This document shows, one piece after another, positions 1 to 17,584 of a DNA stretch of 18,617 nt (positions within the stretch are counted from its first letter, which is position 1; the number at the start of each line of letters is the position of its first letter). Source of the DNA: Escherichia phage YDC107_2; the sequence record CP025713.1. One strand, 5' to 3'. Both the position numbers and the translations under genes were made by a program. Below the pieces are notes generated by a model, which was given only the letters and a program-made list of their open reading frames with translations, ran no database searches and was not told where the DNA came from.

Positions 1-1737
1 GCCGAGTTGTCTGCATTTCTTGGAGAAGCTTATAACACAATCGCCACTGGTGGGCTGAATAAGCTTACTGATACCGGCATGCGAATTTCCGGCGCACGTG
101 CTAACCGTGGTAATGCATCACGACAGATACATTTCAAAGATGCAGATTCATATCTGCAATATCAGCAACTTTATGGCGATCGCTCTCTATGGGAAATCAT
201 GGTCGGTCACCTGGAAGGTATCAGTAAAGATATTGCACTGGTGGAAACATATGGCCCAAACCCCGATCATGTTTTCCGCTCTCTTCTTGATCAGGTGAAG
301 GCAGAAACGGCAACAGCTAACCCGAGTAAAACCGGTAAAGTCGAGCGGCTGGCGAACAACACAGAGAATCTGTACAACTTTATTTCCGGAAAGACACAGC
401 CTGTAGCGAATCCGCACATCGCGCGATGGTCTGACAATATCCGCAACTGGCTGGTTGCCAGCAGACTCGGATCCGCGTTGCTATCATCGTTCTCTGATCT
501 TGGAACCATGTATCTGTCTGCGAAGGTGACCAACCTTCCAATGAACCAGTTATTCCGCAACCAGCTTGAAGCTATGGACCCAACGACCGTACAGAACTTG
601 CGCGGGCGCGCCGCGCTGGTCTGGCAATGGAATCTCTACTTGGCAGCGTTAACCGCTGGGCGATGGATAATATGGGCCGTCAGTGTCTCGTTGGGCAGCA
701 ACGGCGGTAATGCGTGCCAGTGGGCTTACAGCATGGTCAGATGCGCACAAGCGCGCCTATGGCGTAACCATGATGGGAAGCCTGGGAGAAGTAGTGTCAC
801 GGACACCAGACCTTCGTAGCCTCGATGACTCTGATTTTCGTATCCTGAAAAGCAAAGGGATTACTGACACAGACTGGAGCGTATGGAAGCTGGCGCAACA
901 GGAGGACTGGGGGAACGGTAATAATACGATGCTGACACCGGAAAGCATTATGCGTATCCCTGATTCAGCAGTTAAACATCTTGGTGAGCCTGAACGCGTG
1001 AAATTTGAGGCAATGCGTAAACTGCTCGGTGCCGTAACTGAAGAAGTTGATATGGCTGTTATTACACCGGGAGCACGTGAGCAACTGATAACCGGTTCTG
1101 GTATTCAGCGTGGAACATGGAAAGGTGAATTAACGAGAAGTGTTTTCCTGTTTAAATCGTTCCCTATCTCGGTGGTTATGCGTCACTGGTCACGCGCTAT
1201 GGGTATGCCGTCTGCTGGTGGGCGTGCGGCATATATTGCGACGTTTATTGCCAGTACGACCATTCTTTGGCGCTTTGTCGCAGCAACTTAACGACCTTGC
1301 GTCTGGTCGTAATCCTCGCGAGATGACAGGAGAAGATGCTGCTAAATTTTGGCTTGGTGCTCTACTGAAAGGTGGTGGTCTTGGCCTTTACGGTGACTTT
1401 TATTGTCAGATCACACTAGGTACGGAAGCGGCGCGCTGGCGTCGATGCTTGGCCCGGTAGCTGGCCTGGTTGATGACGTAGTGAAGATAGCTCAGGGCAT
1501 ACCATTAAATGCTGTGGAAGGGAAGAACGAGCAGACTGGTGGTGATCTGGTGAAACTTGGGAAAGGGCTGATGCCAGGTGCGAATCTCTGGTACTTGAAG
1601 GCAGCTCTTGATCACATGATCTTTAACCAGATGCAGGAGTATTTTTCACCAGCTATTTGCGTAAAATGGAGCAACGTTCGAAGAAAGAGTTTAACCAGAC
1701 ATACTGGTGGCGACCTCAGGATGTCACTCCGCAATAA
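1..1737 (+). CDS. 3' portion of a large virion internal/ejection-type structural protein; gene starts upstream of the window and is split into four reading-frame segments
   Basis: Track ORFs 7..819, 683..1291, 1140..1460 and 1403..1756 overlap in successive frames; frame 1 is open from base 1. A further shift near 1640 gives a C-terminus ...YLRKMEQRSKKEFNQTYWWRPQDVTPQ ending at TAA 1735-1737. It lies immediately upstream of the tailspike, as ejection proteins do in P22-like podoviruses. The specific function is an inference. Confidence 0.45.
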
Positions 1738-1932
1738 GGAAGTGTTGTGTTTTTAATTATTTGAGTGTGATAATTTCTGGTGGGCTGTTATTTATTGACC
1801 GCTACAAATATTTTCTTAAACCCTCAGACTCAAGCTATTTGCTGGTTCATCTTTGTTGTGCAGGGAGTAGTTCTTGTTGCAAGCCTTATTGAGGGGAGGC
1901 CTCTGATTTTTACTGGGTAAATAGGTGACTAC

Positions 1933-2229
1933 ATGCAAGCTATAGGATTCATTGTTTATATCGTCGTTGGTCTTTTTCAGTTGGCAGCAATTATGGCTGG
2001 GCTTGAATCATGGTGGGGATTGCACTGGATAATTGCAGCCCCCATTGCTTTCATCGTGAGCTATATTCCATTTGTTGGAGCGATTGTTGGTATGGTTGGC
2101 GCTGTGGATGTATGGCGGTGGGAGTGGTGGCAGGCTGGCCTTCTCTTCTTTGGTGGGATAATCTTTGCTATTGTCTGCGGTGGAATGTCATCATTTTTCG
2201 AATGGCTATCATTCAGAAAAGGAACGTGA
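1933..2229 (+). CDS. small integral membrane protein (98 aa, about three hydrophobic helices); possible superinfection-exclusion or moron protein
   Basis: Intact track ORF; AGGTGA precedes the ATG at 1933; the protein is almost entirely hydrophobic (…IVYIVVGLFQLAAIMAGL…IAAPIAFIVSYIPFVGAIVGMVGAV…LLFFGGIIFAIVCGG…). It occupies the position of sieA in P22-like genomes (between ejection genes and tailspike). Confidence 0.5.
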   Translation: MQAIGFIVYIVVGLFQLAAIMAGLESWWGLHWIIAAPIAFIVSYIPFVGAIVGMVGAVDVWRWEWWQAGLLFFGGIIFAIVCGGMSSFFEWLSFRKGT

Positions 2230-2238
2230 CATGTCACA

Positions 2239-2262
2239 GGCCGCTTTCGCGGCCTTTTCTTT
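2239..2262 (+). terminator. rho-independent terminator after the membrane protein gene
   Basis: GGCCGC (2239-2244), loop TTTC, GCGGCC (2249-2254), followed by TTTTCTTT (2255-2262). Confidence 0.5.
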
Positions 2263-2361
2263 ATGTGGTTTGTTTTCGTAATTGTTCGGCACAATAGTCG
2301 AGATGTGTTTGCAGATCCTGCATAGACATCTGTGAGCTGGTGACGTAGTTAATCAGTGCAG

Positions 2362-2517
2362 TCAGTTCGGCAAGTGGCCATCGACATTAAATCCATCCTT
2401 ATCGAGATCCCGGAGTAATTTCATCAAGTGCGATCCCTCCACCAGTGACCTGACGCCTCCCGGCGTGTGAATCCTTTCGGTAAATCCGTCTTCCAGTGGA
2501 TAGTGATACTGCTGCAT
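2362..2517 (-). CDS. small ORF (51 aa as written, possibly about 86 aa if a +1 shift at the stop is an indel) divergent from the tailspike and preceded by a LexA box; candidate SOS-induced antirepressor-like or moron gene
   Basis: Hand translation of the minus strand: ATG at 2517, MQQYHYPLEDGFTERIHTPGGVRSLVEGSHLMKLLRDLDKDGFNVDGHLPN, stop 2364-2362. GGAG lies about 9 nt upstream. Below the 60-aa cutoff of the ORF track. The +1 frame continues ELTALINYVTSSQMSMQDLQTHLDYCAEQLRKQTT down to about 2260. Confidence 0.4.
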   Translation of the reverse strand: MQQYHYPLEDGFTERIHTPGGVRSLVEGSHLMKLLRDLDKDGFNVDGHLPN

Positions 2518-2536
2518 CTTATCTTCTCCATGCAAT

Positions 2537-2556
2537 AACTGTATATTTATACAGTA
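2537..2556. promoter_or_regulatory. LexA (SOS) box overlapping the putative promoter of the minus-strand small ORF
   Basis: AACTGTATATTTATACAGTA matches the E. coli LexA consensus TACTGTATATATATACAGTA at 18 of 20 positions, with a perfect CTGT-N8-ACAG core at 2539-2554. It sits 20 bp upstream of the ATG at 2517, between a TTGATA -35-like and a TATTGC -10-like hexamer on the minus strand. Confidence 0.6.
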
Positions 2557-2592
2557 TCAAATAATTTGTTTGCTATCCAGCACGTTTTGCAA

Positions 2593-2609
2593 ATTACCTG
2601 AAAGGTAAT
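2593..2609. promoter_or_regulatory. operator-like palindrome, site A (ATTACCTGAAAGGTAAT)
   Basis: Perfect 17-bp dyad of the recurring TTACCT-N3-AGGTAA motif, about 100 bp upstream of the tailspike ATG and adjacent to the LexA box. A GGTAAT half-site follows at 2652-2657. Confidence 0.5.
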
Positions 2610-2710
2610 ATCTGTTCGTATTCACACCCTTCTATCCATATGTGGTTTTCAGGTAATAGAATAACCAGATATGCGGCGCAACGGGTGCTGCGACTATCTG
2701 GAGATTTAAC

Positions 2711-5685
2711 ATGACGGTCTCAACCGAAGTTGACCACAACGAATACACAGGTAACGGCGTTACGACATCATTTCCGTATACCTTTAGGGTTTTCAAGGAA
2801 TCTGATCTGGCAGTACAGGTGGTTGACCTTGACGAAAAATATCGCTGTGCTGGCTCTTGATACTGATTACACTGTCACTGGGGCTGGTGGATATAATGGC
2901 GGTAATGTAATTCTGTCGAAGGCGTTAGCTAACGGTTATCAGATTTCTATATCACGAGAGCTACCGGTTACGCAGGAAACTGATCTGCGAAATCAGGGAA
3001 AGTTTTTCGCTGAGGTGCATGAAGACGCGTTAGATAAGCTGACGATGCTGATACAGCAAGTCCGCAGTTGGTTTAGCCTGGCGCTGCGCAAACCATCATT
3101 TGTGGCAAACTATTACGATGCTTTGAATAATTACATCCGCAATTTGCGCGATCCTTCCAAGCCTCAAGATGCAGCTACAAAGAATTATGTTGATAATATT
3201 GTTAATGTGAATATTAACAGGACATTACGGGTTCCAGATAATTTTATTGAACCACTTCCTCCAGTTCATTTACTGGAAGAAACTGTCATTGGTATCGTCA
3301 ATGGTAAACCTATAGGTGTACCTGTGCCTTCTGGCAGTGCCGCAGATGTTCTTCTGCAATTATCTAGCGCAGGAGAAGGAAAAGGTGATGCATTATTTGG
3401 TGTAAGGCAGCCATTTGCCGGGCTGTAACTATAACTCAGCATGAAAACAATGCTCTTTTCTTAAATGTAAAACAATTCGGAGCAATTGGGGATGGGAAAT
3501 ATCATCCATTATCTGAGAGGTTTTCTTCAATTTCTGAAGCAAAATCCTTATATCCTTTTGTTGACTCATTATCTCAGTCAATAGACTGGGCCGCGTGGCA
3601 AGCTGCCCTTAACACAGGAAAGGTTATTTATGGTACTGATAATGCGTATGTAATAACGGATACGTTAACACCTGTTTCTGGTGGTGGGATAATTTGTCTT
3701 GGTGTGGGCAAATGGGTCTCAGGATATACTGCAACATTTGCTCCTGATATTACCACAGGGACCACATTCCTGATGTACGGGGTAGGAAATAAAAAATATA
3801 CTGTAGATTGTGTTTCTAATATGGATGTTAGTGGTGGTGTGGTTTCTAATCCATCTTCCGAAGACCCGTATACAACAACGGCACCTGCGTCATCATATGA
3901 TTTATTGGATTTTACTAACGGTGATGCTAATGGGGCTACAAGAGCCACGCTTAAACCATTCTCTGCCGCAATATTGATGCCAGAGACAGGATGTGTTCGC
4001 CTTGAGAACTTTCGTATTGTTCCATATTTCAATGGGCTGGATGGTTATAAAGACATTGCAAATACCGGTCTTGGCGATGAGTGGGATGTAGGTATTTGGT
4101 CACGTGCGTCTTTGGCAATGAATACCGCAATTTGCAGGTGGTTGGATACTGGCGCAAGACGGCACTTTTAAAAACGAACATTCCTGTATCTGGCACGCTG
4201 GCCGCTCAGGGCGAGGATGAAAACTATTATCACTGTAGATTCCAGGGATTCAAGGGTGTTTCGATCCGCGCCCATGATGTATTCCGAATTACAGCGGTAA
4301 CGTCCAGCACTATCGAAATCCCATGGTCATCAAGCCACACCTTCGAAACGTCCGGGGTTTTAAGATCGGGAGGCAGGAATTTCACTTATTCAGGATTATC
4401 CGTATCCGGTGATAAGTTAGTATTTACTGGAGTGTCTAACGCTTCTGAGGCAACAGTAGGTTCTACTATACGGCGAAATGACATAGATAACTTTGGTATG
4501 GCGGGAACGCAATTTTTCGATTGCTACATTACCAGCCTGTATCACCACACACATCTGCTTGCCACATCGCAATACCTGTCTCAGCCATTCAGCCGGCCAT
4601 CAGAGTGTATGGAGGTTTCAGGGGAACCAGTTCGCGGTGTACAGGTACATGCAGGAACCATTCAGGGATGGGATGATGTTCTTATTCATCTACATGACTG
4701 TGGAAATATGAACTTTTACAGTACATATTTCGAAAGCCAGCAAGCATATGTAACTATAAATGGTGGTAATGCTATTGGTTATGGAGCACGTATGATAGCT
4801 TCCAGGCAATCAACAAGCTCATTACCATATGCAGCAGGGAATACTCGAGTGCTTAGAATGGTCGGGTGCTCTGAAGGCAATGGCGTTGACTGGGGTCCTG
4901 TATTTAACAACTATACAGGAGGAAGATATAATTCTGGAGACGGTGTATTTAACCCCCGCGATGCATTTATAGACCATAAATCTCTTCCTGAGCAGTCAGG
5001 AGGTGAGTCAAGACTCGTATCACAAAAAGGAAATGCCAGAGTAGTATGTGGTGTTGGTAAAACTGTACTGCTTGGACCAACGTCAGGAGATTGTAATTTA
5101 CAGAGCAATACCGGAAGTTTAAATATTAGAAGTGGGATAAGAGTAAGAATCGGTCACGCTGATGGAACAGACTGGTGGTTGGCAGATGCTAATAAAATAG
5201 CTCCTGTTGATGATAATGTTAAAGCTATTGGACAGCCATCAAACAGATGCTCTGTTATCTATGCAGGAACCGGGTCAATCAATACGTCAGATGAAACTCT
5301 TAAAACAAGATATGATATTCTTAATGCAGAGCGTAATGCCGCTATTGAAATAAAGTCAGTCATCTATAAATTTAAATTTAATGACTCAATTAATCACAAA
5401 GGAATTGAGTCGTCCAGGTATCATTTTGGCGTTGGCGCTCAAACCGTAGGGGATATTCTTAGAAAGCATGGTTTAAACCCGGAGCAATATGCTTTTTGGT
5501 GTTACGATGAATGGCCTGACGTATGGGATGAAGAGGTGATAACTGAAGAGAGCACAGATCCTGATACAGGTGAGAAAATTTATTCTCAATATAAAACAGG
5601 AGATATGATTCTTGTAAAAAAAGCAGGAGGACGCTACGGAATTCGTTATGACGAATTAGCCATGTTTATATTAATGTCAATGTAA
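2711..5685 (+). CDS. tailspike / tail fibre protein: conserved N-terminal particle-binding domain, central pectate-lyase-like beta-helix, C-terminal intramolecular chaperone (S74-like) domain; split by three frameshifts
   Basis: ATG 2711 with GGAG at 2700-2703. The N-terminus MTVSTEVDHNEYTGNGVTTSFPYTFRVFKESDLAVQVVDLDE matches from memory the N-terminal domain shared by podovirus tailspikes. Segments are frame 2 (2711-2860), frame 0 (2730..3428), frame 2 (about 3389..4171, containing NALFLNVKQFGAIGDGKYHP, pectate-lyase-like) and frame 1 (4081..5685). The C-terminus …NTSDETLKTRYDILNAERNAAIE… resembles auto-cleaving chaperone domains of endosialidase-type tailspikes. The first shift is one extra A in the A-run at 2835-2839. 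Confidence 0.7.
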
Positions 5686-5697
5686 TAATAAATGCAA

Positions 5698-5730
5698 TAA
5701 CCCGAATAAAACAGCGGGGTTATTGTTATT
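5698..5730 (+). terminator. possible weak terminator after the tailspike gene
   Basis: Imperfect stem AACCCG…CGGGGTT followed by a T-rich stretch; weak. Confidence 0.3.
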
Positions 5731-6017
5731 ATAATAATGCTCTTAACTTCTTAAATGATATTTATATGCACTTGGATTATTAAATCTATATTATGCCTGT
5801 TATTTATGTGTTCTGTTATATGTTTTGCAGGCACTGTTGGCAGCATTAAAGGAAATTGTATTTATGGCGAAATAGCTGGTATCGTGTTTTTATTGTGCGT
5901 AAAAATAACAGACTGCATATATTATTGTATAAAGTTTTGGAAATGAAAACACTCAAACTTACCGCTGTGGATATGTTTTGACCATCGCGAATTGGATTGG
6001 TAATATTGGGTAACAAA

Positions 6018-6033
6018 AAACCATAAATGGTTT
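6018..6033. promoter_or_regulatory. 16-bp perfect palindrome AAACCATAAATGGTTT upstream of the lysis cassette
   Basis: Exact dyad symmetry about 35 bp upstream of the AGGAGG for the first lysis gene; candidate regulator binding site. Function is an inference. Confidence 0.3.
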
Positions 6034-6068
6034 ATCATGCGTAATGCTTTACTGTTCAGGAGGTAGTT

Positions 6069-6495
6069 ATGCATATAAACGGTGGAAAACATGTCAGCTC
6101 AACTAACCAGTGAAACTTTAAATCAGTGGCTTAGCATGAGTTCTTTGGCGGCAGTGATAGCAGGAGTTCCTCCTGAGGTTGCTTTGGGGTCTTTGGCTGG
6201 GGCGGTGATTTTTGTTACCTCTGCGGTAGAGTATCCCATTCGTCGTCGCGTGCTCTTGTCGATGCTTAGCTTTCTCTGCGGACTTCTATTCTACAAACCA
6301 GCAGCATCAATTCTTATCGGCATAGCCAGCCTGATCCCTACAATCACACAGGATTCTTTCGAGAAAGGGATTGTTTTCTCTGCCGGTGCATTTGTGTCAG
6401 CAATCGTCGCTGTGCGAATTGGGATCTGGCTCTATCACCGTTCCGATAATCCACGCGAGTTAATTCCGGGGAGAAAAGACGATGGTAACTCATGA
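6069..6495 (+). CDS. holin-like membrane protein; start ambiguous between ATG 6069 (strong RBS, out of frame) and GTG 6082 / ATG 6091
   Basis: Track ORF 6082..6495 (137 aa) has several hydrophobic helices. AGGAGG at 6058-6063 is ideally spaced for ATG 6069, which is in another frame and gives only 14 aa; an indel in GGAAAACA (6085-6092) would fuse them into an M…M dual-start pattern typical of holin/antiholin pairs. Confidence 0.5.
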
Positions 6496-6790
6496 GCTTT
6501 TTTTGCTTACCACCAATGCGGTTATTTGCGCCGGTATAGCAGTTCGAGTTGCCACATTTCGGAGAAACGGTTCTCAACACAGGCGATGGGGTGGGTGGCT
6601 TGCTTATTTCCTGATTGTTGCTGCGGCCAGCATTCCAGTTCGTGTCGCTTATGCAATCTGGTTACGCACGCCAATGGTTGTGGATTTATCTGAGGTCATT
6701 ATCAACGCTGTCATGCTTGCTGCAGTCATTAAAACGCGCGGTAACGTAGTTCAGATTTTCAAAATAACGAGGTCTAAACATGGAGATTAA
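6482..6790 (+). CDS. second small membrane protein of the lysis cassette (holin or lysis accessory, 102 aa)
   Basis: Intact track ORF with GGAG upstream; two to three hydrophobic helices; overlaps the end of the preceding gene and the start of the endolysin. Confidence 0.45.
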
Positions 6791-7409
6791 ACAATTCCAG
6801 CGAGCTGCTGGTATCAGCGAGGAACTGGCCGCTCGCTGGTTCTCGCATATAACTTCTGCGATGAAAGAGTTTGGTATCAGCAAACCAGAAGATCAGGCAA
6901 TGTTTATTGCTCAGGTCGGGCATGAGTCTGGAGGCTTCACCCGGTTGCAGGAAAATTTCAACTACAGCGTAACCGGATTGGCTAACTTCGTTCGGGCTGG
7001 GCGTCTCACTCAGGGGCAGGCTAATGCACTTGGTCGCCGTGCTGGTGAACCACCATTGCCACTCGAGCGCCAGCGCGCGATCGCAAATCTGGTGTACAGC
7101 AAACGCATGGGGAACAATGCCCCTGGTGATGGCTGGAATTACCGTGGGCGCGGGCTTATCCAGATTACCGGTTTGAATAACTATCGTGACTGCGGAAACG
7201 GTCTGAAAGTTGACCTGCTGGAGAATCCTGAACTGCTGGCGCAGGACGAATACGCGGCTCGTAGCGCGGCGTGGTTCTTTGCCAGCAAAGGATGCATGAA
7301 GTATACCGGTGATATTGCACGTGTAACTCTGATTATCAATGGTGGCCGGAACGGCATCGACGACCGGCGCGCGCGGTACGTCACTGCCAGTAAGGTGCTG
7401 GCTATATGA
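6780..7409 (+). CDS. endolysin, glycoside hydrolase family 19 (chitinase-like) type
   Basis: 209-aa intact ORF; the motifs QVGHESGGF and [16 protein letters not shown] are characteristic of GH19 phage endolysins (from memory); GAGGT RBS; start overlaps the preceding gene. Confidence 0.75.
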
Positions 7410-7888: not shown

Positions 7889-8061
7889 CATGGCATTTTT
7901 CATGGTACTGATTTCCGGTGACGGTATATAAAACGGTACGGTGAAAATCATGTTGCAGGAAGTTGTTATCAGTCAATTAGTTATGGTATCCGTAAATAAT
8001 TGAGTGGGAATGATTAACAGCTAACTCATAGCAAATCATTCCTATTCAGATGCCAACTCAA

Positions 8062-8092
8062 CCCTCTGTTTTTGCAGAGGGTTTTTGTTTTT
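8062..8092 (+). terminator. rho-independent terminator ending the late/lysis transcript
   Basis: Stem CCCTCTG (8062-8068) / CAGAGGG (8075-8081), 6-nt loop, followed by TTTTTGTTTTT. Confidence 0.6.
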
Positions 8093-9459: not shown

Positions 9460-9654
9460 TTAATTATTCTGCTGATTTTCTTCCATCTCGGCTTCTGCTG
9501 CCAGTGATTCAATTTTATCTGTGAATATTGCTGACAGTGTTGCAAATTCAGCATCAGTGACAGCGGGAATTGGAACAAACCTGATCCCGCTGTGTGCAAG
9601 CATGTTTGCAGTTTCAAGGCATTTCCTTAAATCTGATGGTGATGCCCTGTTCAT
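9460..9654 (-). CDS. small acidic protein (64 aa) translationally coupled to the methyltransferase; function unknown
   Basis: The ATG at 9654..9652 overlaps the methyltransferase stop (ATGA); it is in frame with track ORF 9460..9774; sequence MNRASPSDLRKCLETANMLAHSGIRFVPIPAVTDAEFATLSAIFTDKIESLAAEAEMEENQQNN. No homology recognised. Confidence 0.35.
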   Translation of the reverse strand: MNRASPSDLRKCLETANMLAHSGIRFVPIPAVTDAEFATLSAIFTDKIESLAAEAEMEENQQNN

Positions 9655-10301: not shown

Positions 10302-10560
10302 AAACCACCCCACAACATCCTATGCCGCTATAGTCGCCACGGCGAAGGCCGTTACCTTTTGTGATACATTGGTCCCTGCGAACCGCGATCCTTGCACGCT
10401 CAACATCACCAGAAGCAACATCCATACACTGAAGCCAAAGGTGAGCGGCAATGCGGAACTGCCCTTTTTTCTCTCTTTCAATCGCGCGTTTTTCGATCTC
10501 TATCGCCGCAGGAGTAACGGCGACAATCTTTGACGGACTGCGCATTGAAACCTTGTTCAT
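10294..10560 (-). CDS. PerC-like transcriptional activator family protein
   Basis: …KRAIEREKKGQFRIAAHLWLQCMDVASGDVERARIAVRRDQCITKG… resembles the PerC family signature (Lys-Gly…RRAA…W…RRDQC) from memory. The start is ambiguous: ATG 10560 or GTG 10593. Confidence 0.5.
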   Translation of the reverse strand: MNKVSMRSPSKIVAVTPAAIEIEKRAIEREKKGQFRIAAHLWLQCMDVASGDVERARIAVRRDQCITKGNGLRRGDYSGIGCCGVVYD

Positions 10561-10702
10561 GTGATATTTTTCAAGTCGGCTTAACTTTCTCACTTAATCC
10601 AACCCTCTCTGAAAATTAATGCCAGCAGATAAAGCCATGCTGAAACAGAGGCCAGGAATAAGTACCATCCTGACCATTTGCTCCAGTGCCTTAGCAGCAC
10701 AC

Positions 10703-10951
10703 TCATGCCGCGTTGCTCACGGGACGATATACACGTTGCTGAACAGGAGGTTTTTTACCCTGGAACTCTGCCGGGCTTGCTGCCTGACGTTCATCAAGCC
10801 AACGCTCAACTTCATCACGGTTCCATGCGCAGCGTTTATCGGTGATATACCAGCGTTTAGGAAATTCCCCTGCGCGCTCCATACGGTCGATAGTGCTCCA
10901 TGACAGTGGAACCACCGCCAGGAGTTCCTTCTTACCTAATGCACCTTTCAT
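10703..10951 (-). CDS. AlpA-family phage transcriptional regulator / excisionase-like HTH protein
   Basis: 82 aa; LLAVVPLSWSTIDRMERAGEFPKRWYITDKRCAWNRDEVERWL matches the AlpA pattern (…LSRSTIYR…G.FPKP…AW…E.WL). Confidence 0.65.
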   Translation of the reverse strand: MKGALGKKELLAVVPLSWSTIDRMERAGEFPKRWYITDKRCAWNRDEVERWLDERQAASPAEFQGKKPPVQQRVYRPVSNAA

Positions 10952-11000
10952 AAATACCTCTCTTGGTTGCAGTGCGGCGCGCGTGGCGCCGCGGTGGTGG

Positions 11001-11942
11001 TTACATAGATGTTTCGTTTAATTCTTCCCGACGAACGCTGTAAACGTCGGTGGCTTTTGCCAGCAGTTCGTCATCATCTGAAAGTTTTTGTGCAATGTAT
11101 TTGTAAGCCTTATCCAGTTCGGAGACAGTGCTGTAATTCATCGCTGCGCTGGTAAAGGCCATCAGCATTTCTTCTGGATCACGGCTGTCCGATTTACGCG
11201 TTTGCTCATCAGGCTTTTTCGCTGGTTTAGCGTTGATCAGACTGTTCATTCCCGCAGCAGTGGTCGTTTGCGGAGTAATGTCTCGCTCAACGCGCGGTGC
11301 CGTTTCCTGTAATTCGTCTGGGGTGTAGACGCCCATGATTACGTCAGGACAGTGCAGGCGAGACCAGCGTTTTGTCGCAAGGTATGCGAGTTGTTGTTTC
11401 GGATCACTGGCCCAAAGTGTGGAGTTTCTTACCTGTGCTTGAGACAGCATTAACTCAAGCACTCGAGGTTGATCCTCGCCCTTCATGGTTGCCCATACGC
11501 GAACACCGCAGCCTTCTTCGTCTTTTAGAGTCCAGCCTGGTGCGATATATGGATTGCCGTTTTTGGATGTTTTCTCAACAAACTTACCGATCACGCGTTC
11601 CCACGGCCCGAACCACTCGTAGTTGATGCGATCTTTTGTTGGCGACATCGTTGAGATAACTGCGTTTACTAATTGGGCTTCATAACCTAGCGTGCCGTTC
11701 ACAACATGGGTTTTCTGAGCCACGGCAAACGGGTTCATTCCCCACTGCGCAGCCTGCATTGCCACGGCCATGCAATCAGCTGGTTTCCCGGCGAGGTGCG
11801 CCGGTACCGTTACGCGGCTTTGCGCCATTACCTCGGCGAATTTCATCAGTTGGTTCAAGCCGTCTGGGCTGAAAATAGTTGCAGCAGTTCCAGCGATTGC
11901 TGTGTCTACTGGTGCGTTGATGTTTGCGATGTCGTTGCTCAT
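11001..11942 (-). CDS. recT: RecT-family single-strand annealing recombinase
   Basis: About 313 aa. The ATG at 11942..11940 overlaps the exonuclease stop (ATGA). The RecT assignment rests on length and pairing with the adjacent exonuclease; the family call is from memory. Confidence 0.65.
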   Translation of the reverse strand: MSNDIANINAPVDTAIAGTAATIFSPDGLNQLMKFAEVMAQSRVTVPAHLAGKPADCMAVAMQAAQWGMNPFAVAQKTHVVNGTLGYEAQLVNAVISTMSPTKDRINYEWFGPWERVIGKFVEKTSKNGNPYIAPGWTLKDEEGCGVRVWATMKGEDQPRVLELMLSQAQVRNSTLWASDPKQQLAYLATKRWSRLHCPDVIMGVYTPDELQETAPRVERDITPQTTTAAGMNSLINAKPAKKPDEQTRKSDSRDPEEMLMAFTSAAMNYSTVSELDKAYKYIAQKLSDDDELLAKATDVYSVRREELNETSM

Positions 11943-12760
11943 ATGTACATATCCTGTTTGCGTGCCCACTCAGGGCGTTTAATGATTTCCACACCGCCCC
12001 ATTCATCATTGATGCGGCATTCGTGATAGGTATTCAGATCCCGGCGGAACAGAGCGTGCCCGGCATCGACATCCTGCGCATCCAGCTCGAACACGCGTAC
12101 CGGATACCGACCACAATCAATGCTTTCGCTCACGGCAAGAAAGAAAAAACCATGCGGCTGACCAGTAACCCTCATTGCGCCTTCGCGGTACATTGCGTCC
12201 TGCACGTGGTAGCGGAATTCCTCGATGTGGCGTGCAAAACGGTCCATATCTGCAACCTTTTTCACGTCGACGATCACGTTGTGCTCGTTCAGCCATTTGT
12301 CTGGACGAATTCGGCACAACTCCCCCGTCTCTTCATCGTTCCAGTACATTGATGCTTCGCAGTAACCAGGTGCTTCCAGCATCCAGCGTGCCGCCGGGTG
12401 AGCCATTGCGCTATCACGCATCAGCTCCAGTTTCCGCCACTGCTCGGCATCAAGTACCGTAATCCCCATATCCGCCACATCACGAAGAAATTCCTCTTCG
12501 TCAGCTTTACCTTGTTTCGTCCGACGATCGAATTTCGGTGAAACAATGAAGCGTTTGTCGAACTCTCCAGGCTCCAGAAGCAGACAGTGCAATGCGGTTC
12601 CCATATCCAGTGCAGACTTTTTCTCTTCGTCTTCTGGTGCTGCCTGAACCCATTTAAGAAGCGCCGGATTCTTGGCAACCATGTCCAGTTGCGACTTACT
12701 CACGCCGTCACCGGCGTGGTAGTCTTCGTTGCTGATGTCGAAATAAATTCCCGGTTTCAT
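11939..12760 (-). CDS. RecE-like PD-(D/E)XK 5'-3' exonuclease, partner of RecT
   Basis: 273-aa intact ORF beginning MKPGIYFDISNEDYHAGDGVSKSQLD…, with …RIRPDKWLNEHNVIVDVKKV… consistent with a PD-(D/E)XK nuclease core; translationally coupled to the flanking genes. Confidence 0.6.
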   Translation of the reverse strand: MKPGIYFDISNEDYHAGDGVSKSQLDMVAKNPALLKWVQAAPEDEEKKSALDMGTALHCLLLEPGEFDKRFIVSPKFDRRTKQGKADEEEFLRDVADMGITVLDAEQWRKLELMRDSAMAHPAARWMLEAPGYCEASMYWNDEETGELCRIRPDKWLNEHNVIVDVKKVADMDRFARHIEEFRYHVQDAMYREGAMRVTGQPHGFFFLAVSESIDCGRYPVRVFELDAQDVDAGHALFRRDLNTYHECRINDEWGGVEIIKRPEWARKQDMYI

Positions 12761-13020
12761 GCCGCGTCCCTCTGCCCATCAAGCTGATCAGCCAGATCCC
12801 AGCGGGCGATAATTGCCATTGCCTCGCGCCGGTAGGCATCCATTAGTTCTTCGAACTCAGGGCTGTCTTTAGCGGCCTCCAGTACTTCCTGGCGAACGCC
12901 TTTAACTGTTACAACGTCGAAAGTTGATGCCAGTTGATGAAGCCGGATACTCTCAATCAGTTCAACTTGTCGGTCATATAGCTGTTCTGACAGACGGTAG
13001 TCCTTGTCGAATGCCAGCAT
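12757..13020 (-). CDS. hypothetical early protein (87 aa, helical), first long gene of the leftward early operon
   Basis: Intact track ORF whose stop overlaps the exonuclease start; no motif recognised. Lambda places gam/kil-type genes in this position. Confidence 0.45.
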   Translation of the reverse strand: MLAFDKDYRLSEQLYDRQVELIESIRLHQLASTFDVVTVKGVRQEVLEAAKDSPEFEELMDAYRREAMAIIARWDLADQLDGQRDAA

Positions 13021-13057
13021 GATTTTTGAAGATTTTTCTGCTGATTAACGTTCATTA

Positions 13058-13210
13058 TCAGCCCTCCCATATCTCGTTATCGTTGGCCACATCGCGAGCT
13101 TCTTTGCTGACGAAAGCCCACTTAATGCCTTCCTGTAAGGTGCGGAACTTCCAGCTCATGAATCCGCATGCAGTAACGCAGTACCAACCGTTGATGATTT
13201 TCCACTGCAT
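13058..13210 (-). CDS. small hypothetical protein (50 aa) immediately downstream of the early-left promoter
   Basis: Hand translation MQWKIINGWYCVTACGFMSWKFRTLQEGIKWAFVSKEARDVANDNEIWEG; GAGGT lies 9 nt upstream of the ATG at 13210; below the track cutoff. Confidence 0.35.
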   Translation of the reverse strand: MQWKIINGWYCVTACGFMSWKFRTLQEGIKWAFVSKEARDVANDNEIWEG

Positions 13211-13228
13211 AACTTGTTACCTCGGTCT

Positions 13229-13245
13229 GTTACCGTTGAGGTAAT
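13229..13245. promoter_or_regulatory. operator-like palindrome, site C (GTTACCGTTGAGGTAAT) at the early-left promoter
   Basis: TTACCG-N3-AGGTAA, directly abutting the -10-like element; an extra TTACC half-site lies at 13217-13221. Confidence 0.5.
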
Positions 13246-13272
13246 AATTATGCGTATATGGTTTGATGTCAA
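13246..13272 (-). promoter_or_regulatory. candidate early-left (pL-like) sigma-70 promoter
   Basis: On the minus strand a perfect TTGACA -35 (13272..13267) is followed 15-17 nt later by a CATAATT -10-like element (about 13252..13246), bracketed by operator sites D and C. Confidence 0.4.
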
Positions 13273-13290
13273 TAGATATGAGTTAAAAAA

Positions 13291-13307
13291 ATTACCCGTT
13301 AGGTAAT
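13291..13307. promoter_or_regulatory. operator-like palindrome, site D (ATTACCCGTTAGGTAAT)
   Basis: TTACCC-N3-AGGTAA, between the repressor terminator and the -35 of the early-left promoter. Confidence 0.5.
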
Positions 13308-13316
13308 CGAATAGGC

Positions 13317-13340
13317 AATAAAAAGCCGCCATAAGGCGGC
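13317..13340 (-). terminator. rho-independent terminator of the repressor gene
   Basis: GCCGCC (13325-13330), loop ATAA, GGCGGC (13335-13340); on the minus strand the stem is followed by TTTTTATT (complement of 13317-13324). Confidence 0.5.
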
Positions 13341-13362
13341 TTACTTACTGAAAAATATGGTT

Positions 13363-13948
13363 TTATTGTTTGTTTTTTTCGTTCTGGTTGATGACAAATT
13401 CAATGTAACTTTCGATCTTTGCTTTCTCGGTTTCGGGTAACAATGCGTAGCGCGAGCGATCATAGTTGATGGTCGCAGGGTCGTGCGGGTGAATCAGTAA
13501 TTCATAGCCGTGACGCCCGAATGCGGATGCAACATTCTCCAGGGTGGAAATGGAAACGCTGACCTCATTGTTTAACAGGCGGCTGATTGTCACCTGGGCG
13601 ACGCCGGATGCGCGGTGAAGTTTTCCCTGTGTTGAAAGGTCGCGGCTTTCGCTCATCCAGCGTTCCAGGTTGTGAGCCGCCAGCTGGCCAATGTCGCTTG
13701 GGCCGACAGGCTGAAAACCTTCCTGAGAAAGCGAGCGATCGATATCAAGCCAGTTACGGGGTTTATTGGCGGCAGCTTCAATTTTTCGCGCAACCTGATC
13801 GCCGATAACCTTCTTACCAAGAGCCCAGCGGTTTTACCAGATTTGCCTGAGTTCCAAGTTTTTCAGCCATCCGCGTCTGAACACCATTGAATTCACGGTC
13901 GATCAAGTCGTTGAGATTTTGCCTGCGGACGTCCTGGATACTTTTCAT
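13363..13948 (-). CDS. immunity repressor candidate: CI-like protein with two HTH-like regions and no recognisable LexA-like S24 cleavage domain; one frameshift
   Basis: Minus-strand ATG at 13948 gives MKSIQDVRRQNLNDLIDREFNGVQTRMAEKLGTQANLV… (HTH), which stops after the A-run near 13830; the next frame continues …GKKVIGDQVARKIEAAANKP… into track ORF 13363..13656 (second HTH-like …GKLHRASGVAQVTISRLLNN…). It is divergent from the Cro-like gene with operator palindromes on both sides. Confidence 0.6.
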
Positions 13949-14002
13949 TTTCTGGAAAATCGCCTCATATCTGAATCAGAAGATGATTCAATTTAAAGCA
14001 AT

Positions 14003-14019
14003 ATTACCCAACAGGTAAA
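14003..14019. promoter_or_regulatory. operator-like palindrome, site E (ATTACCCAACAGGTAAA) in the repressor/cro intergenic region
   Basis: TTACCC-N3-AGGTAA; a degenerate copy GCACCTCATGGGTAAC follows at 14021-14036. Confidence 0.5.
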
Positions 14020-14050
14020 TGCACCTCATGGGTAACTATCCTTGATTTTT

Positions 14051-14067
14051 GTTACCTTATAGGTGAA
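14051..14067. promoter_or_regulatory. operator-like palindrome, site F (GTTACCTTATAGGTGAA)
   Basis: TTACCT-N3-AGGTGA, one mismatch; about 35 bp upstream of the Cro-like ATG; a TTGATT -35-like hexamer lies at 14042-14047. Confidence 0.45.
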
Positions 14068-14102
14068 TATTTATTATCTGAAATAAATATCAGGCAATAG
14101 CT

Positions 14103-14333
14103 ATGAGCGATAACGGACATTTCGATTTCAAAAAGCACTGGCTTGCACTTACTCCGGATGAGCGTGAAGCCTTCGCACAGGAAGCCGGAACGACGAGTCA
14201 CTATATCCAGACTCACTTAACAGGTAAGCGCAAAATGCCAGGTAAGGTATTGATGAATGGGCTTTTTAAAGCCTGTAAATCAAGACAATGGCTGCGCTCA
14301 AAAGCAGAACTGGTATACTTCTTCTACTCATGA
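14103..14333 (+). CDS. Cro-like / CII-like small HTH regulator (76 aa)
   Basis: Intact track ORF divergent from the repressor; …DEREAFAQEAGTTSHYIQTHLTGKR… has a helix-turn-helix signature; followed by a terminator. Confidence 0.5.
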   Translation: MSDNGHFDFKKHWLALTPDEREAFAQEAGTTSHYIQTHLTGKRKMPGKVLMNGLFKACKSRQWLRSKAELVYFFYS

Positions 14334-14355
14334 TATCCAGCTACAACCCTCTGTA

Positions 14356-14378
14356 GACCGCCACCCGGCGGTCTTTTC
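14356..14378 (+). terminator. rho-independent terminator after the Cro-like gene
   Basis: GACCGCC (14356-14362), loop ACCC, GGCGGTC (14367-14373), then TTTTC. Confidence 0.5.
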
Positions 14379-14387
14379 ATATCTATT

Positions 14388-14404
14388 CGTACCTCAAAGG
14401 TAAT
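14388..14404. promoter_or_regulatory. operator-like palindrome, site G (CGTACCTCAAAGGTAAT)
   Basis: GTACCT-N3-AGGTAA, one mismatch; downstream of the cro terminator and upstream of the zinc-ribbon gene. Confidence 0.4.
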
Positions 14405-14483
14405 AAATAACCAAATGTGGTTGATCTTTTTTTTGTGTCAGCACAAAATGACCGTAATCCCAATACTAATAACAGGGCTTACC

Positions 14484-14683
14484 ATGGAAATCATTACACG
14501 TATTGATGCCGCAAAGCGCGGACTTAAACGCTACTACACCGGAAAACATGTAAGCACGGACATGACAGTGAACGCTGGGTTTACAACGGACACTGTGTTG
14601 AGTGCACCATGGAATCAAACCGTCGTATCAGGGCAGAGATTAAGCAGATCATGATTAATTCCTCCCCACAACATTCAAGCTGA
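14484..14683 (+). CDS. small zinc-ribbon-like protein (about 66 aa) between cro and the replication genes; one frameshift
   Basis: ATG 14484 with AGGG RBS gives MEIITRIDAAKRGLKRYYTGK…; after the A-run near 14540 the next frame reads …TCKHGHDSERWVYNGHCVECTMESNRRIRAEIKQIMINSSPQHSS, with a Cys/His cluster consistent with a zinc ribbon. Confidence 0.4.
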
Positions 14684-14698
14684 TAGCGGAGATTAATC

Positions 14699-15545
14699 AT
14701 GAGCAGACATGCAACAGATTGGGCCTGGGAGACAGATCCAGGTAGCTCGTCATTAAAGCTCATACTGCTCTCGATGGCTGACAGAGCCGAATGAATATAA
14801 CCTCTGCTACCCCAGCATAGAACGCCTCGTTAAAGACACTTGCCTGAATAAAAAAACCGTGCAGGCCGGGCTTATATCGCTCATGAAAATGGGGCTTATT
14901 TCAGAATACCGGAGAGAGAAAGGGAGCGACGAAAAGAGTGCGGGTTTTCTCTCTTAATATAACCAAAAACGGGAACATTAAAGGCAACCGGGAAGGGGTA
15001 ATGAACCGAAAGCGGTAATGTTACCGGAAAACGGGAATATACCCAAAAAACGGGATGTTGAATGATCCCAAAAAACGGGATGTTGAATGATCCCAAAAAC
15101 GGGATCCAGAACCAGTCATATAACCAGTCATTTACCAAGAGAGGGAGAGCAGGACAAAAAACGGGGATTCTGTGCATCATGACCCCGGCGCAAACAACGC
15201 CGTGATGAATAACTTTGTTCCTCCTGGTGGGCTAGGGCAATTAGGCAAATTTGTCATGCATGAACAATGGCGGCCATCAGATGATTTCTTCGGAAAAGCT
15301 CATTGCAGGGGATCTACCTGGACAGTCTGCCAACGGCACAGGAACTTGCAGAGTTCAGAATTTACTGGATGGCTGAGGGTAAGGCATACCATCAGGCACA
15401 GTGGGAGCAGAAGCTGGCAAGGCGGCTGCAGATTAGCAGACAGAAGCAATCAACATTACCTGATAACAACGTTCCGCACTGGAACAGCCCTGAAGCATGG
15501 AGGATTTCTTGTGAACAACGTTTTTACCGCGATACAAAACCGTGA
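14699..15545 (+). CDS. replication initiator (lambda O-like organisation): N-terminal HTH domain, internal origin iterons, C-terminal DnaT-like domain; reading frame broken in several places
   Basis: ATG 14699 with GGAG RBS gives MSRHATDWAWETD…; after a shift near 14775-14790 it continues …NEYNLCYPSIERLVKDTCLNKKTVQAGLISLMKMGLI… (replication-protein HTH). The iterons lie at 14963-15170. Track ORF 15303..15545 (…TAQELAEFRIYWMAEGKAYHQAQWEQKLARRLQ…) resembles the C-terminal domain of E. coli DnaT from memory. Confidence 0.5.
14963..15170. repeat. origin-of-replication iterons (AAAACGGGA-type direct repeats)
   Basis: The core ACGGGA/ACGGGG recurs six times at 14969, 15031, 15050, 15075, 15099 and 15161, including two identical tandem 25-bp copies CCCAAAAAACGGGATGTTGAATGAT (15042-15066 and 15067-15091). 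The region also holds a palindrome CGGTAATGTTACCG (15013-15026) and a direct repeat ACCAGTCAT (15111-15119, 15124-15132). Confidence 0.55.
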
Positions 15546-15564
15546 CGGAGAAGCCCTTTCTCGC

Positions 15565-16298
15565 ATGTCAGGTTATGAGCATCAGTACACCAACAATGAC
15601 AACGTAGTGAACATGTCAGCAGAGAGGCTTGTTGATGCCCTTTTCAAACAGTTGAAACACTGTTTCCGGCGGCAGTGGTAACCAACCTGAAGACGCCAGA
15701 GCAGGAAGTTGCTGCAAAACAGCAGTGGATTGCTGCGTTTGCCGAAGGGGGGATCCGAACCCGTGAACAGGTTTCTGCTGGTATGCGCCACGCCCGCGCC
15801 AGTGAATCTCCGTTCTGGCCGTCCGCCAGGGGCAATTTATCAAGTGGTGTAAAGACAGCAAGATGGTTCTTGGCGTCACCAATTGACGATGTGATGGCGG
15901 AGTTTCACCGGTACAGCAAGGAAAAAAGTTTATATCCTGGTGGTCCCGAAAGATTCCCGTGGCGGCATCCGGTTATGTACTGGGTCGTATGTGATACCCG
16001 CCGTGCAATGTATCAGCGCCAGCTTAGCGAGATTGAGGTTGAGAAACACGCGCGCAGGCCTGCTTGATGATTGGGCGAAAAAGGTGGCTTCCGGACAGCA
16101 GATACCCGATCCGGTGATCAGCATACAGGCAAAGCCAGAACCCATGAGTACGCCTCCGGACACAGGGAGAGACGTTTACCATCCACCAGGGCGAAGTTTC
16201 GGGTGTATGCCTAACGCCGCTACCCTGGGGGGAAAACACCGGCGCAGTGGCTGATGGAGGAATACAGGCGGGGAAAGGCGGCAGGATTTATCAAGTAA
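15565..16298 (+). CDS. lambda P-like replication protein (DnaB helicase loader); three frameshifts
   Basis: Track ORF 15675..16067 contains …QQWIAAFAEGGIRTREQVSAGMRHARASESPFWPSARG…SLYPGGPERFPWRHPVMYWVV…, which aligns with lambda P (…RRQWVLAFRENGITTMEQVNAGMRVARRQNRPFLPSPGQ…GLYPDAESYPWKSNAHYWLV…) from memory. The N-terminus is in frame 1 from ATG 15565; the C-terminus continues in ORF 15940..16254 and shifts again at GGGGGGAAAA (about 16228) to end …GKTPAQWLMEEYRRGKAAGFIK at TAA 16296-16298. Confidence 0.6.
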
Positions 16299-16335
16299 TA
16301 CCAGCGCGATAGCGCATTTTTTTTACGTCTCAATA

Positions 16336-16352
16336 ATTACCTATCAGGTAAC
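16336..16352. promoter_or_regulatory. operator-like palindrome, site H (ATTACCTATCAGGTAAC)
   Basis: TTACCT-N3-AGGTAA, in the intergenic region after the P-like gene. Confidence 0.45.
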
Positions 16353-16398
16353 AAAGCATTCTAAACTCTATTGATTTCGTGTCTTATGTGGTTTTTTA

Positions 16399-16415
16399 AT
16401 TACCTTAGAGGTAAA
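16399..16415. promoter_or_regulatory. operator-like palindrome, site I (ATTACCTTAGAGGTAAA), overlapping the RBS of the next gene
   Basis: TTACCT-N3-AGGTAA ending 3 nt before the ATG at 16418; the AGGT half doubles as the Shine-Dalgarno sequence. Confidence 0.45.
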
Positions 16416-16417
16416 TC

Positions 16418-16763
16418 ATGAGAAAACAGATACAGGCTCTTGGTCGACTCAAAACAGGCCAGATGAACAAAACAGAATCTGCGTATTGCCAGCACCTTGA
16501 GCAGCGTAAACGTGCAGGGGAAAATCGCCTGGTATCGATTCGAGGGTATCAAGTTGCGGTTAGCTGACAACACGTTCTATACGCCAGATTTCGCTGTGAT
16601 GCTCGCCACCGGAGAGATGGAACTGCACGAAGTGAAAGGTTTCTGGACCGACGACGCCAGGGTGAAAACCAAAGTCGCCGCAGATCAGTATCCGTTCCGA
16701 ATCATCGGGGTAACGGTTAAGCCAAAGAAAGCAGGTGGTGGCTGGAACATCGAAGAGTTCTGA
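16418..16763 (+). CDS. small PD-(D/E)XK-type nuclease (phage DUF1064-like, Holliday-junction-resolvase-like); one frameshift
   Basis: ATG 16418 gives MRKQIQALGRLKTGQMNKTESAYCQHLEQRKRAGE…; after GGGGAAAA (about 16518) the next frame continues as track ORF 16497..16763 (…WYRFEGIKLRLADNTFYTPDFAVMLATGEMELHEVKGFWTDD…), showing a PD…E.K nuclease motif. Confidence 0.5.
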
Positions 16764-16824
16764 ATCGACGATCTTTTTAGTTATCAATGTTATCAATAAG
16801 TTATGTGGATAAGCGAGGGTAAAG

Positions 16825-17274
16825 ATGGAAAGTATGGCTGAAGGTATGATCAAAGATTTAGTGGCATCAGGGCATGCGTTAGCTGACGACATGACAGGCG
16901 CACCATCCGTGCTTGTTCGCTGTTTGGCAACGCAACTGGAAGTGCAACTGGTGCGTGCTAATGCGCTGGCGGGGAGAAATGAGCTGGCTCGTAAGGCAGT
17001 TCAGGCATTCTGCGATGTTGTTGGCGACAACACTGAGGTTATCGCTGAGGTGGTTGGGCGAGATGGCGTTCTGGTTATTTTGGAGGCCATGAAGGCAACA
17101 GGAAATATGCCAGCCACCGATGCTTTCCTGGCTGAAATTGAACGCAAAGCAATCCGCAAGTTCATTAACAGCATTGAACACATCCTGCGTGACAAGTTAT
17201 CACCGTATGACACCGAAGAGATGCTTGAGGCTATGCGTATTTTTCTGGAAGAACAGGGAGGTGAGCAAAAATGA
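16825..17274 (+). CDS. hypothetical phage protein (149 aa)
   Basis: Intact track ORF with a GAGGG RBS; helical, no motif recognised; its stop overlaps the next start (ATGA). Confidence 0.5.
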   Translation: MESMAEGMIKDLVASGHALADDMTGAPSVLVRCLATQLEVQLVRANALAGRNELARKAVQAFCDVVGDNTEVIAEVVGRDGVLVILEAMKATGNMPATDAFLAEIERKAIRKFINSIEHILRDKLSPYDTEEMLEAMRIFLEEQGGEQK

Positions 17275-17584
17275 CGATCACAAAACAACGTGTAGAAGAA
17301 ATCATATCCCGCATTGAAATGTATGGGCATGGTGGGATACCGCTGACGAGGTTTATGACCTTGCTGTACTGGCGCTGAATTTATCAAATATCGCAAAACT
17401 CAAGCGATACGAGCTTGATATGGATGGTTGTGACTCGTTCGGTCAGGATTGTGGCGCTGACATGACTGAAGATTCTGATGGCGATTATGTCCTGTTTGAT
17501 GACGTGGTTAAGTTGTTTGAGTTTGATACAACCACTCAGAAGTTAGAAAACCCAGCAAAGGAGTCAACCAGTGAGCAAGATTAA
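17271..17584 (+). CDS. hypothetical acidic protein (about 104 aa); one frameshift
   Basis: ATG 17271 gives MTITKQRVEEIISRIEMYGHGG…; after a shift at GGTGGG (about 17328) it continues …DTADEVYDLAVLALNLSNIAKLKRYELDMDGCDSFGQDCGADMTEDSDGDYVLFDDVVKLFEFDTTTQKLENPAKESTSEQD, stopping at 17582-17584. Confidence 0.35.

Follow-up and report, generated by a model that had tools for sequence, protein, structure and literature searches.

Frameshifts in a segment of a phiV10-like temperate phage are very probably small-indel errors of sequencing or assembly

The 18,617-nucleotide stretch of DNA analysed here (the window; Escherichia phage YDC107_2, CP025713.1) carries many phage genes whose reading frames are interrupted as written. 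The locus raises the question of whether these frames were lost in a decaying prophage, or were broken when the sequence was determined and assembled. A preliminary description of the window had favoured indel errors over ancient decay, and we approached the question by comparing the window with its intact relatives.

The window comes from a viable-type temperate phage of E. coli that belongs with phiV10 and epsilon15 in Uetakevirus, and covers a segment of its genome. Support for its place in Uetakevirus came from phiV10, which aligned to 74% of the window at 95.7% identity and with the same gene order, namely ejection protein, tailspike, lysis genes, attP, integrase, recombination genes, repressor, and replication genes. 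Matches in the YDC107 genome were confined to the two halves of a single prophage, located at guaA, and alignment showed that the window consists of both ends of this prophage joined across a 17-bp core. Since the core is sited between the Rz-like gene and int, the window represents the attP (excised or virion) form. The lysis genes lead through the core directly to int, colinear with the phiV10 virion genome, and the attL/attR layout of chromosomal integration was not found in the window. Large deletions, IS elements, and rearrangements were likewise absent from the window, which is colinear and full-length with both YDC107 and phiV10.

Over 18.6 kb, the window differs from the YDC107 prophage by 42 indel events and one substitution. 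Thirty-four of the indels lie inside 12 annotated genes and eight are intergenic. The reading-frame breaks reported previously are present in the sequence as written, and the genic events number more than twice the 15 or more that had been noted. The features concerned are listed below.

1-1737, plus strand: ejection/virion structural protein gene, 3' part (phiV10 gp20-like); five private indels, at 586, 674, 1266, 1398, and 1652
1760-1818: two intergenic indels, T4>T3 at 1760 and A2>A3 at 1818
2261-2517, minus strand: epsilon15 gp19-like gene of 85 aa (the LexA-box gene, or "SOS-regulated ORF"); one deletion, at 2376 (G3>G2 on the plus strand)
2539-2554: LexA box of perfect consensus (CTGTATATTTATACAG) just upstream of the minus-strand gene at 2261-2517; unaltered
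2630-2646: two intergenic deletions, T3>T2 at 2630 and T5>T4 at 2646
2711-5685, plus strand: tailspike/tail fibre gene; insertion at 2835 (A4>A5), deletions at 3420 and 4111, substitution at 3396
5701: intergenic deletion, C4>C3, the final event before the indel-free island
5702-13022: indel-free island, base-for-base identical to YDC107
7999-8015: attachment core of 17 bp, common to both YDC107 prophage ends; 3' end of guaA
12757-13055, minus strand: hypothetical gene of 99 aa (WP_001102254); deletion at 13023 (T6>T5)
13320: intergenic deletion, A6>A5 relative to YDC107
13363-13948, minus strand: HTH repressor gene, 194 aa; insertion at 13832 (T3>T4 on the plus strand)
14484-14683, plus strand: 66-aa gene (WP_000402893); deletion at 14547 (C2>C1)
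14699-15514, plus strand: DnaT-like replication initiator gene ("O-like"); ten indels, at 14790, 14905, 14999, 15006, 15026, 15045, 15070, 15134, 15285, and 15499
15511-16298, plus strand: lambda-P-like replication protein gene; six indels, at 15659, 15824, 15829, 15881, 16059, and 16235
16317-16392: two intergenic insertions, T7>T8 at 16317 and T5>T6 at 16392
16418-16763, plus strand: DUF1064 gene ("small nuclease"); insertion at 16521 (A3>A4)
16825-17274, plus strand: hypothetical gene of 149 aa; compensating pair, C deleted at 16973 and A inserted at 16977
17271-17584, plus strand: hypothetical gene of 105 aa; two events, CC and GT lost at 17335-17337 (GTGCCGGGTATACC>GTGGGATACC), net -4
17571-18385, plus strand: ead/Ea22-like gene; deletion at 18327 (A3>A2)

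Between 3 and 10 breaks are found in each of four genes (those for the ejection protein, the tailspike, and the two replication proteins), whose amino-acid sequences are otherwise unchanged. The tailspike, which in its intact form has 991 aa and an endosialidase-chaperone domain at its C-terminus, also holds the sole substitution in the window relative to YDC107 (TTAATT>TTATTT at 3396), and this can be read as two adjacent run-length errors. Through the compensating pair at 16973/16977 the frame is kept and two residues are altered. The deletion at 18327, which lies past the end coordinate of the preliminary description, shifts the final 19 codons of the Ea22-like gene and fuses it to the next gene (ORF 17571-18578, 335 aa). 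The 66-aa gene at 14484-14683, formerly called a zinc-ribbon gene, had no Pfam match. The break suspected in the "SOS-regulated ORF" proved to be a one-base deletion, whereas that proposed at the holin start must be dropped: the holin genes (6091-6495 and 6482-6790) are both 100% identical to YDC107.

The 42 indels comprise 17 insertions and 25 deletions, and involve 44 bases in total. All 17 insertions copy an adjacent base (chance 0.43 each, ~7e-7 overall). Indel frequency per run rises monotonically over run lengths 1 to 7 (0.09%, 0.3%, 1.4%, 3.8%, 11%, 15%, and 17%), and runs of at least 3, with 16% of the bases, account for 24 of the 42 events (P = 1e-9). Another nine events fall on 2-base runs, and nine affect a non-repeated base. 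The association with homopolymers claimed earlier is therefore real; its restriction to A and G runs is not, as all four bases are involved (A14 T11 G9 C8 on the plus strand, with 25 of 42 at A:T; A+G make up 22 of the 34 genic events on the coding strand, by hand tally). Similarly, alignment to an intact relative bore out the expected small indels, but not the expectation that every break would be a change in homopolymer length. Three of the four junctions cited as examples are indeed one-base run changes (those at 2835, 13832, and 16521), but near 16228 a single T is lost instead (GGAATAACA>GGAAAACA), which creates an A run. Run-length dependence alone does not discriminate between error and mutation, given that polymerase slippage in vivo shows the same dependence.

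Coding and intergenic DNA are affected alike. Real mutations would be expected to show selection against indels in coding DNA; this was considered and rejected, as intergenic DNA has no excess of events when run length is allowed for (8 observed and 5.3 expected, P = 0.24). The DnaT-like initiator gene contains iteron-like repeats. Of three identical CCCAAAAACGGGA repeats, two only have acquired an extra A. The errors are therefore stochastic and not strictly determined by context, and we discarded systematic, context-determined error as the sole cause.

How do undamaged relatives differ from YDC107? When intact natural relatives were compared with YDC107, substitutions and indels stood at 114:2, 73:1, 161:4, and 48:0, giving a natural baseline in this phage group of at least 40 substitutions per indel. 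The outgroups HS4, MS 198-1, and phiV10 show the YDC107 state wherever the context is conserved. Across 39 related loci, covering all 43 differences, there were 610 hits to the intact alleles and none to those of the window; lesions inherited in common by related strains were thus not encountered in these loci. A megablast of the window gave no match better than YDC107 among phages, complete E. coli genomes, and plasmids, and the lesions did not occur at an identity better than that of YDC107 in 5,426 complete E. coli genomes. In exact-pattern scans, a window-specific 26-mer was not found in viral, metagenome, and genome collections, nor a second window-specific 22-mer in the viral collection, whereas an intact 24-mer, the positive control, was present in 36 viral contigs. 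Two window-specific proteins had no exact-protein record. No second record carrying the same indels emerged from the megablast, exact-pattern, and exact-protein searches.

The indels are also unevenly distributed. The 7.3 kb between 5702 and 13022 contain none, with ~26 expected (P < 1e-5 for such a gap), and the replication genes form a hot zone (14700-16300) with errors at ~1%; the even spread of errors along a uniformly covered contig was not seen. The island includes two holin genes, a GH19 endolysin, an Rz-like gene, attP, and the integrase, together with DUF1382, an MT-A70 methylase, PerC, an AlpA-like HTH gene, RecT, and a RecE-like nuclease. Several causes for it were tried and rejected. 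It is not short of homopolymers, having 88 runs of at least 4; of the 42 events, just 2 have a Dam motif nearby and just 1 a Dcm motif; and its GC content is not distinctive. An unpolished repeat was likewise set aside, at least in a YDC107-like host, where the two prophage halves are the only genome match. Such a distribution would point to coverage or polishing that varied along the sequence, or to a composite consensus.

Judged from the sequence comparisons, the frameshifts are very probably not biological; they would be small-indel errors from sequencing or assembly, in a phage that is itself intact and YDC107-like. Almost all differences are one-base indels, their rate tracks run length, and the derived alleles are private. 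We infer that the underlying chemistry may have miscounted runs of identical bases, as would nanopore, low-depth PacBio CLR, or a flow-based method such as 454 or Ion Torrent, and that uneven polishing or coverage may have left 0.25-1% indel errors in 1-5701 and 13023-18327 and a perfect sequence in 5702-13022. The indel-to-substitution count, the private alleles, and the attP arrangement uphold the error reading of the preliminary description; its specific attribution to long reads does not follow, as flow-based chemistries give the same profile. In long-read assemblies, gene-fragmenting, homopolymer-linked indels are documented, and MinION assemblies have been described as gaining an additional A where a C run is followed by a single A (PMC12007338). 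The change at position 15881, CACCA>CACCAA, has the same form. Some observations count against an artefact: the strong non-uniformity, which is not expected under a simple model of uniform error, the nine events on non-repeated bases, and the site that loses four bases.

Could the indels instead be genuine mutations, in a phiV10-like prophage that is decaying (cryptic) and has been inactivated many times over? Twelve genes are broken, among them essential structural and replication genes, and homopolymers are also favoured by slippage in vivo. Nevertheless, we regard decay as very unlikely. An excess of 42 indels over one substitution is opposite to the natural baseline, the element is fully colinear with its relatives and has suffered none of the gross damage looked for, its layout is attP and not attL/attR, and 0 of 39 relatives share any allele; moreover, neutral decay would not give 10 independent frameshifts in an 816-bp gene without point mutations. 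Frameshift-specific mutagenesis of parts of the genome, by an acridine/ICR-191-type mutagen, Pol IV overexpression, or mismatch-repair loss, would account for a nearly pure, run-length-dependent spectrum of +/-1 indels, and regional clustering could in principle mean a localised process. ICR-191 acts chiefly at G:C runs, Pol IV causes chiefly -1 events, and mismatch-repair loss brings many transitions. The window shows 25 of 42 events at A:T, a balanced 17:25 ratio of insertions to deletions, and no clear transition; furthermore, 34 coding frameshifts would leave a phage unable to propagate, yet the window has the excised form. Such mutagenesis is hardly credible. If the indels were genuine after all, which we hold to be very improbable, an excised or episomal YDC107-type Uetakevirus would have been hit by a localised, almost purely frameshift-generating process that struck the structural and replication modules and spared the lysis/integration/recombination block, leaving a freshly killed phage genome without point mutations.

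It is next to inconceivable that the breaks are decoded, with programmed ribosomal frameshifting or transcriptional slippage restoring the proteins. Some do sit in A or T runs, but the frame is uninterrupted at each site in every relative, and there is therefore no conserved slippery site; the runs are also short (1 to 6 in most cases), a single gene has as many as 10 shifts, some plus and some minus, and eight events are intergenic. An artefact without instrument error, in which a YDC107-like sequence was corrupted in silico, passed through a simulated error model, or put together by a faulty merge of contigs polished to different degrees, is improbable, though it deserves some weight. In its favour, the 18.6 kb of the window reproduce a single public genome in everything but the 43 differences, perfect blocks give way abruptly to error-laden ones, and the window's alleles are unmatched in every collection searched. 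The run-length dependence and the neighbour-copying insertions, in contrast, resemble real instrument behaviour; as a realistic simulator would mimic that pattern, sequence alone cannot separate such an origin from instrument error. The biological consequence would be the same, namely that the frameshifts are not real.

The main value of the analysis, with sequencing or assembly error as the preferred reading, lies in quality control, and the frameshifts themselves are no new biology. As written, the record would have a dozen pseudogenes annotated and could pass for a defective or decaying phage; after correction at the 42 indel sites and the tailspike substitution, it describes a temperate phage of the phiV10 type, ordinary and intact, with the same sequence as the YDC107 prophage. 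One near-identical reference suffices to tell error from decay, and the indel-to-substitution ratio, outgroup polarity, and allele privacy all agree in direction.

Homopolymer indel errors in ONT/PacBio or 454/Ion Torrent assemblies are known to create spurious pseudogenes (PMC12007338, Kastor; PMC8011154, Homopolish). Like such assemblies, the window has +/-1 indels far in excess of substitutions, a rate that goes up with run length, insertions that copy their neighbour, a minority of events that delete non-repeated bases, and fragmented genes with perfect protein sequence on either side. Unlike them, it has its errors in two blocks with a clean 7.3-kb block between and a ~1% zone over the replication genes, and lacks an association with Dam/Dcm motifs. 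The cryptic E. coli prophages DLP12, Rac, Qin, and e14 are integrated, have been shortened by large deletions and IS insertions, and have gathered substitutions as well as indels. The window shares with them many phage genes that are unreadable as written, but not the integration, large deletions, IS insertions, or accumulated substitutions. Its closest counterparts are Escherichia phage phiV10, Salmonella phage epsilon15, and the YDC107 prophage at guaA (NZ_CP025707.1, about 1074940-1113067), which have the same order from ejection protein to tailspike, lysis cassette, attP, and int, and onward through recT/recE, repressor, DnaT-like, and P-like genes. Set against phiV10 (~96-98% identity in shared modules), the window is without the Bro-N antirepressor and the oac O-acetyltransferase, and the body of its tailspike is different; compared with the YDC107 prophage, its order is that of the excised form, and that of YDC107 is integrated.

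The window was assigned by megablast to the genus Uetakevirus, temperate podophages of the phiV10/epsilon15 group, and aligned with phiV10 over 74% of its length at 95.7% identity, with the same gene order. Its genes are arranged as follows:

Left end: ejection/virion structural protein, small divergent gene, tailspike
Lysis part: two holin genes, GH19 endolysin, Rz-like gene
Next: integrase, DUF1382, MT-A70 methylase, PerC, AlpA-like HTH, RecT, RecE-like nuclease
Right end: HTH repressor, DnaT-like initiator, lambda-P-like protein, DUF1064, Ea22-like protein

The intact homologues were scanned against Pfam, which identified HTH_3 in the repressor, DnaT and HTH_36 in the initiator, Phage_lambda_P in the P-like protein and an endosialidase chaperone at the C-terminus of the tailspike, and backed the DUF1064 label. 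The same scans gave no Pfam match for the ejection protein, or for the 66-aa gene described in the preliminary description as a "zinc-ribbon".

In one complete genome, that of E. coli YDC107 (NZ_CP025707.1), the same phage is present as a prophage, flanked by yfgI and guaA. Positions 1–8015 of the window correspond to one end of this prophage, and positions 7999–18617 to the other. The 17 bp at 7999–8015 are the attachment core, since both prophage ends share them and they match the last bases (3′ end) of guaA. Because the window joins the two ends, it is the recombined attP form of a guaA-integrating Uetakevirus: a circle after excision, DNA from virions, or a phage record in permuted order. 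It is not an integrated prophage, and the phiV10 virion genome is colinear with it across the att point. Two 41,027-bp circular "plasmid" records from duck E. coli assemblies (NZ_CP079771.1 and NZ_CP079768.1) are also phiV10-like phage genomes (93.9% identity over 69% of the window), and excised circles of this group are therefore assembled as separate replicons. The element itself is of the ordinary phiV10-like kind, and identical to a prophage already known.

Compared to YDC107, positions 7999–18617 have no mismatches and 28 gap openings, while positions 1–8015 have 14 indels and one substitution, giving a total of 42 indel events (17 insertions and 25 deletions; 44 bases). The single substitution, at 3396 in the tailspike gene, changes TTAATT to TTATTT, leaves the reading frame as it was, and can also be read as A2>A1 plus T2>T3. 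At one site, four bases are gone (GTGCCGGGTATACC>GTGGGATACC). By the annotation of intact YDC107, 12 genes share 34 of the events, including ten in the DnaT-like gene and six in the P-like gene, and the other eight are intergenic. The frame breaks noted in the preliminary description are thus real features of the record, although its count of "at least 15" was too low. A tblastn search with the intact proteins gave the expected frame jumps, with ~95–100% identity on either side of the breaks. The last event, at 18327, lies past the end given for the breaks in that description, and joins the Ea22-like ORF to its neighbor, so as to create a 335-aa ORF. The suspected break at the holin start was not found, as both holin genes are identical to those of YDC107.

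Runs of at least three bases hold 24 of the 42 events, yet comprise just 16% of bases (P = 1e-9). Longer runs are hit more often, with a per-run rate that climbs smoothly from 0.09% at length 1, through 0.3%, 1.4%, 3.8%, 11% and 15%, to 17% at length 7. All 17 insertions copy the adjacent base (43% expected for random insertion), and a non-repeated base is affected in nine events. The link to homopolymers therefore holds, but its restriction to A/G runs is weak, as the events are spread over all four bases (A14, T11, G9, C8 on the + strand). Three of the four junctions cited earlier (2835, 13832, and 16521) are one-base changes in run length, whereas that near 16228 is the loss of a lone T, which thereby creates an A run.

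The events are unevenly spread, with 14 in 1–5701, none in 5702–13022, and 28 in 13023–18327, of which 16 sit in 14700–16300 (~1% of bases). The clean 7.3-kb island, containing the lysis genes, attP, int, and recombination genes, has no differences from YDC107. At the run-length-specific rates of its flanks, ~26 events would be expected there, and no gap as large arose in 100,000 uniform simulations. A shortage of homopolymers is ruled out by the 88 runs of at least four bases inside the island; GC content is ordinary, no relation to Dam/Dcm was seen, and YDC107 has no paralogue that would set the island apart for polishing. The most economical reading would be that depth or polishing was uneven, or that the consensus is a composite. 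Over- and under-calls are balanced, with almost no substitutions, a profile that suits flow-based chemistries no less than nanopore or low-depth PacBio.

Between YDC107 and its intact natural relatives, the differences are mainly substitutions, with substitution to indel ratios of 114:2 for HS4, 73:1 for MS 198-1, and 161:4 and 48:0 for phiV10; the ratio for the window is 1:42. Wherever flanking bases are conserved, these outgroups have the YDC107 state and never that of the window. In 39 related loci, 36 of which were IMG/VR contigs retrieved by the intact allele, we counted 610 intact alleles and no window alleles. Window-specific strings were absent from viral, metagenome, and genome collections, and no record was found of two window-specific proteins. 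Nor was there a signature of selection: eight events are intergenic, where run lengths alone predict 5.3 (P = 0.24). Decay in cryptic prophages, which are integrated, proceeds mainly via large lesions together with substitutions. The window, in attP form, is free of large deletions, IS elements, and rearrangements. The events do not look like neutral decay of a phage, which would have to place ten independent frameshifts within one 816-bp gene and a single point mutation, in the tailspike gene, across 18.6 kb. Nor do they fit a known frameshift-biased mutational process: ICR-191 targets G:C runs, Pol IV yields −1 events, and loss of mismatch repair yields transitions, whereas here most events are at A:T, with insertions and deletions in balance.

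This very artifact is described in the literature for long-read assemblies, in which a non-repeated base is occasionally lost and an A may be added where a C-run is followed by one A (PMC12007338); the latter pattern occurs in the window at 15881 (CACCA>CACCAA). A realistic in silico error model is also conceivable, and would leave the biological meaning unchanged. Based on the spectrum, polarity, and privacy of the events, the lack of a selection signature, the layout, and the implausibility of the alternative, we consider it very likely that the frameshifts are indel errors rather than decay, as originally favored, and are "not biological". The frameshift set is no real biological feature of this phage.

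Several other features of the window were noted:

2539–2554: perfect LexA-box consensus, CTGTATATTTATACAG, 22 bp upstream of the following gene
2261–2517 (− strand): small 85-aa, epsilon15 gp19-like gene, divergent from the tailspike gene
~14958–15170 (15957–16167 in locus L001): five or six 18-nt iteron-like direct repeats (ATnnnCCCAAAAACGGGA), spaced 18 to 24 nt, in the DnaT-like initiator gene

The gene behind the LexA box may have an SOS-controlled function, such as that of an antirepressor; phiV10 has a Bro-N antirepressor gene near there, which the window lacks. As suspected earlier, this ORF is broken, by a deletion at 2376. The repeats are reminiscent of the ori iterons inside lambda gene O, and phage replication probably starts in this region. 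Indels are denser here than anywhere else in the window, with five events in 72 bp. The tailspike of the window (2711–5685) resembles that of phiV10 only in its N-terminal part (~88% identity to roughly 3194); beyond this it consists of a different module, with an endosialidase-chaperone (Peptidase_S74) domain at its end. The window also lacks the oac O-acetyltransferase gene of phiV10, leaving a 400-bp AT-rich gap (5686–6090) ahead of the holin gene. Finally, RecE and RecT are annotated in phiV10 as one fused 1761-bp CDS (p37; 13127–14887 of L002, the phiV10 locus), whereas YDC107 and the window have separate, overlapping RecT (11001–11942) and RecE-like (11939–12760) genes; the phiV10 record may contain a frameshift here, or have been annotated differently.
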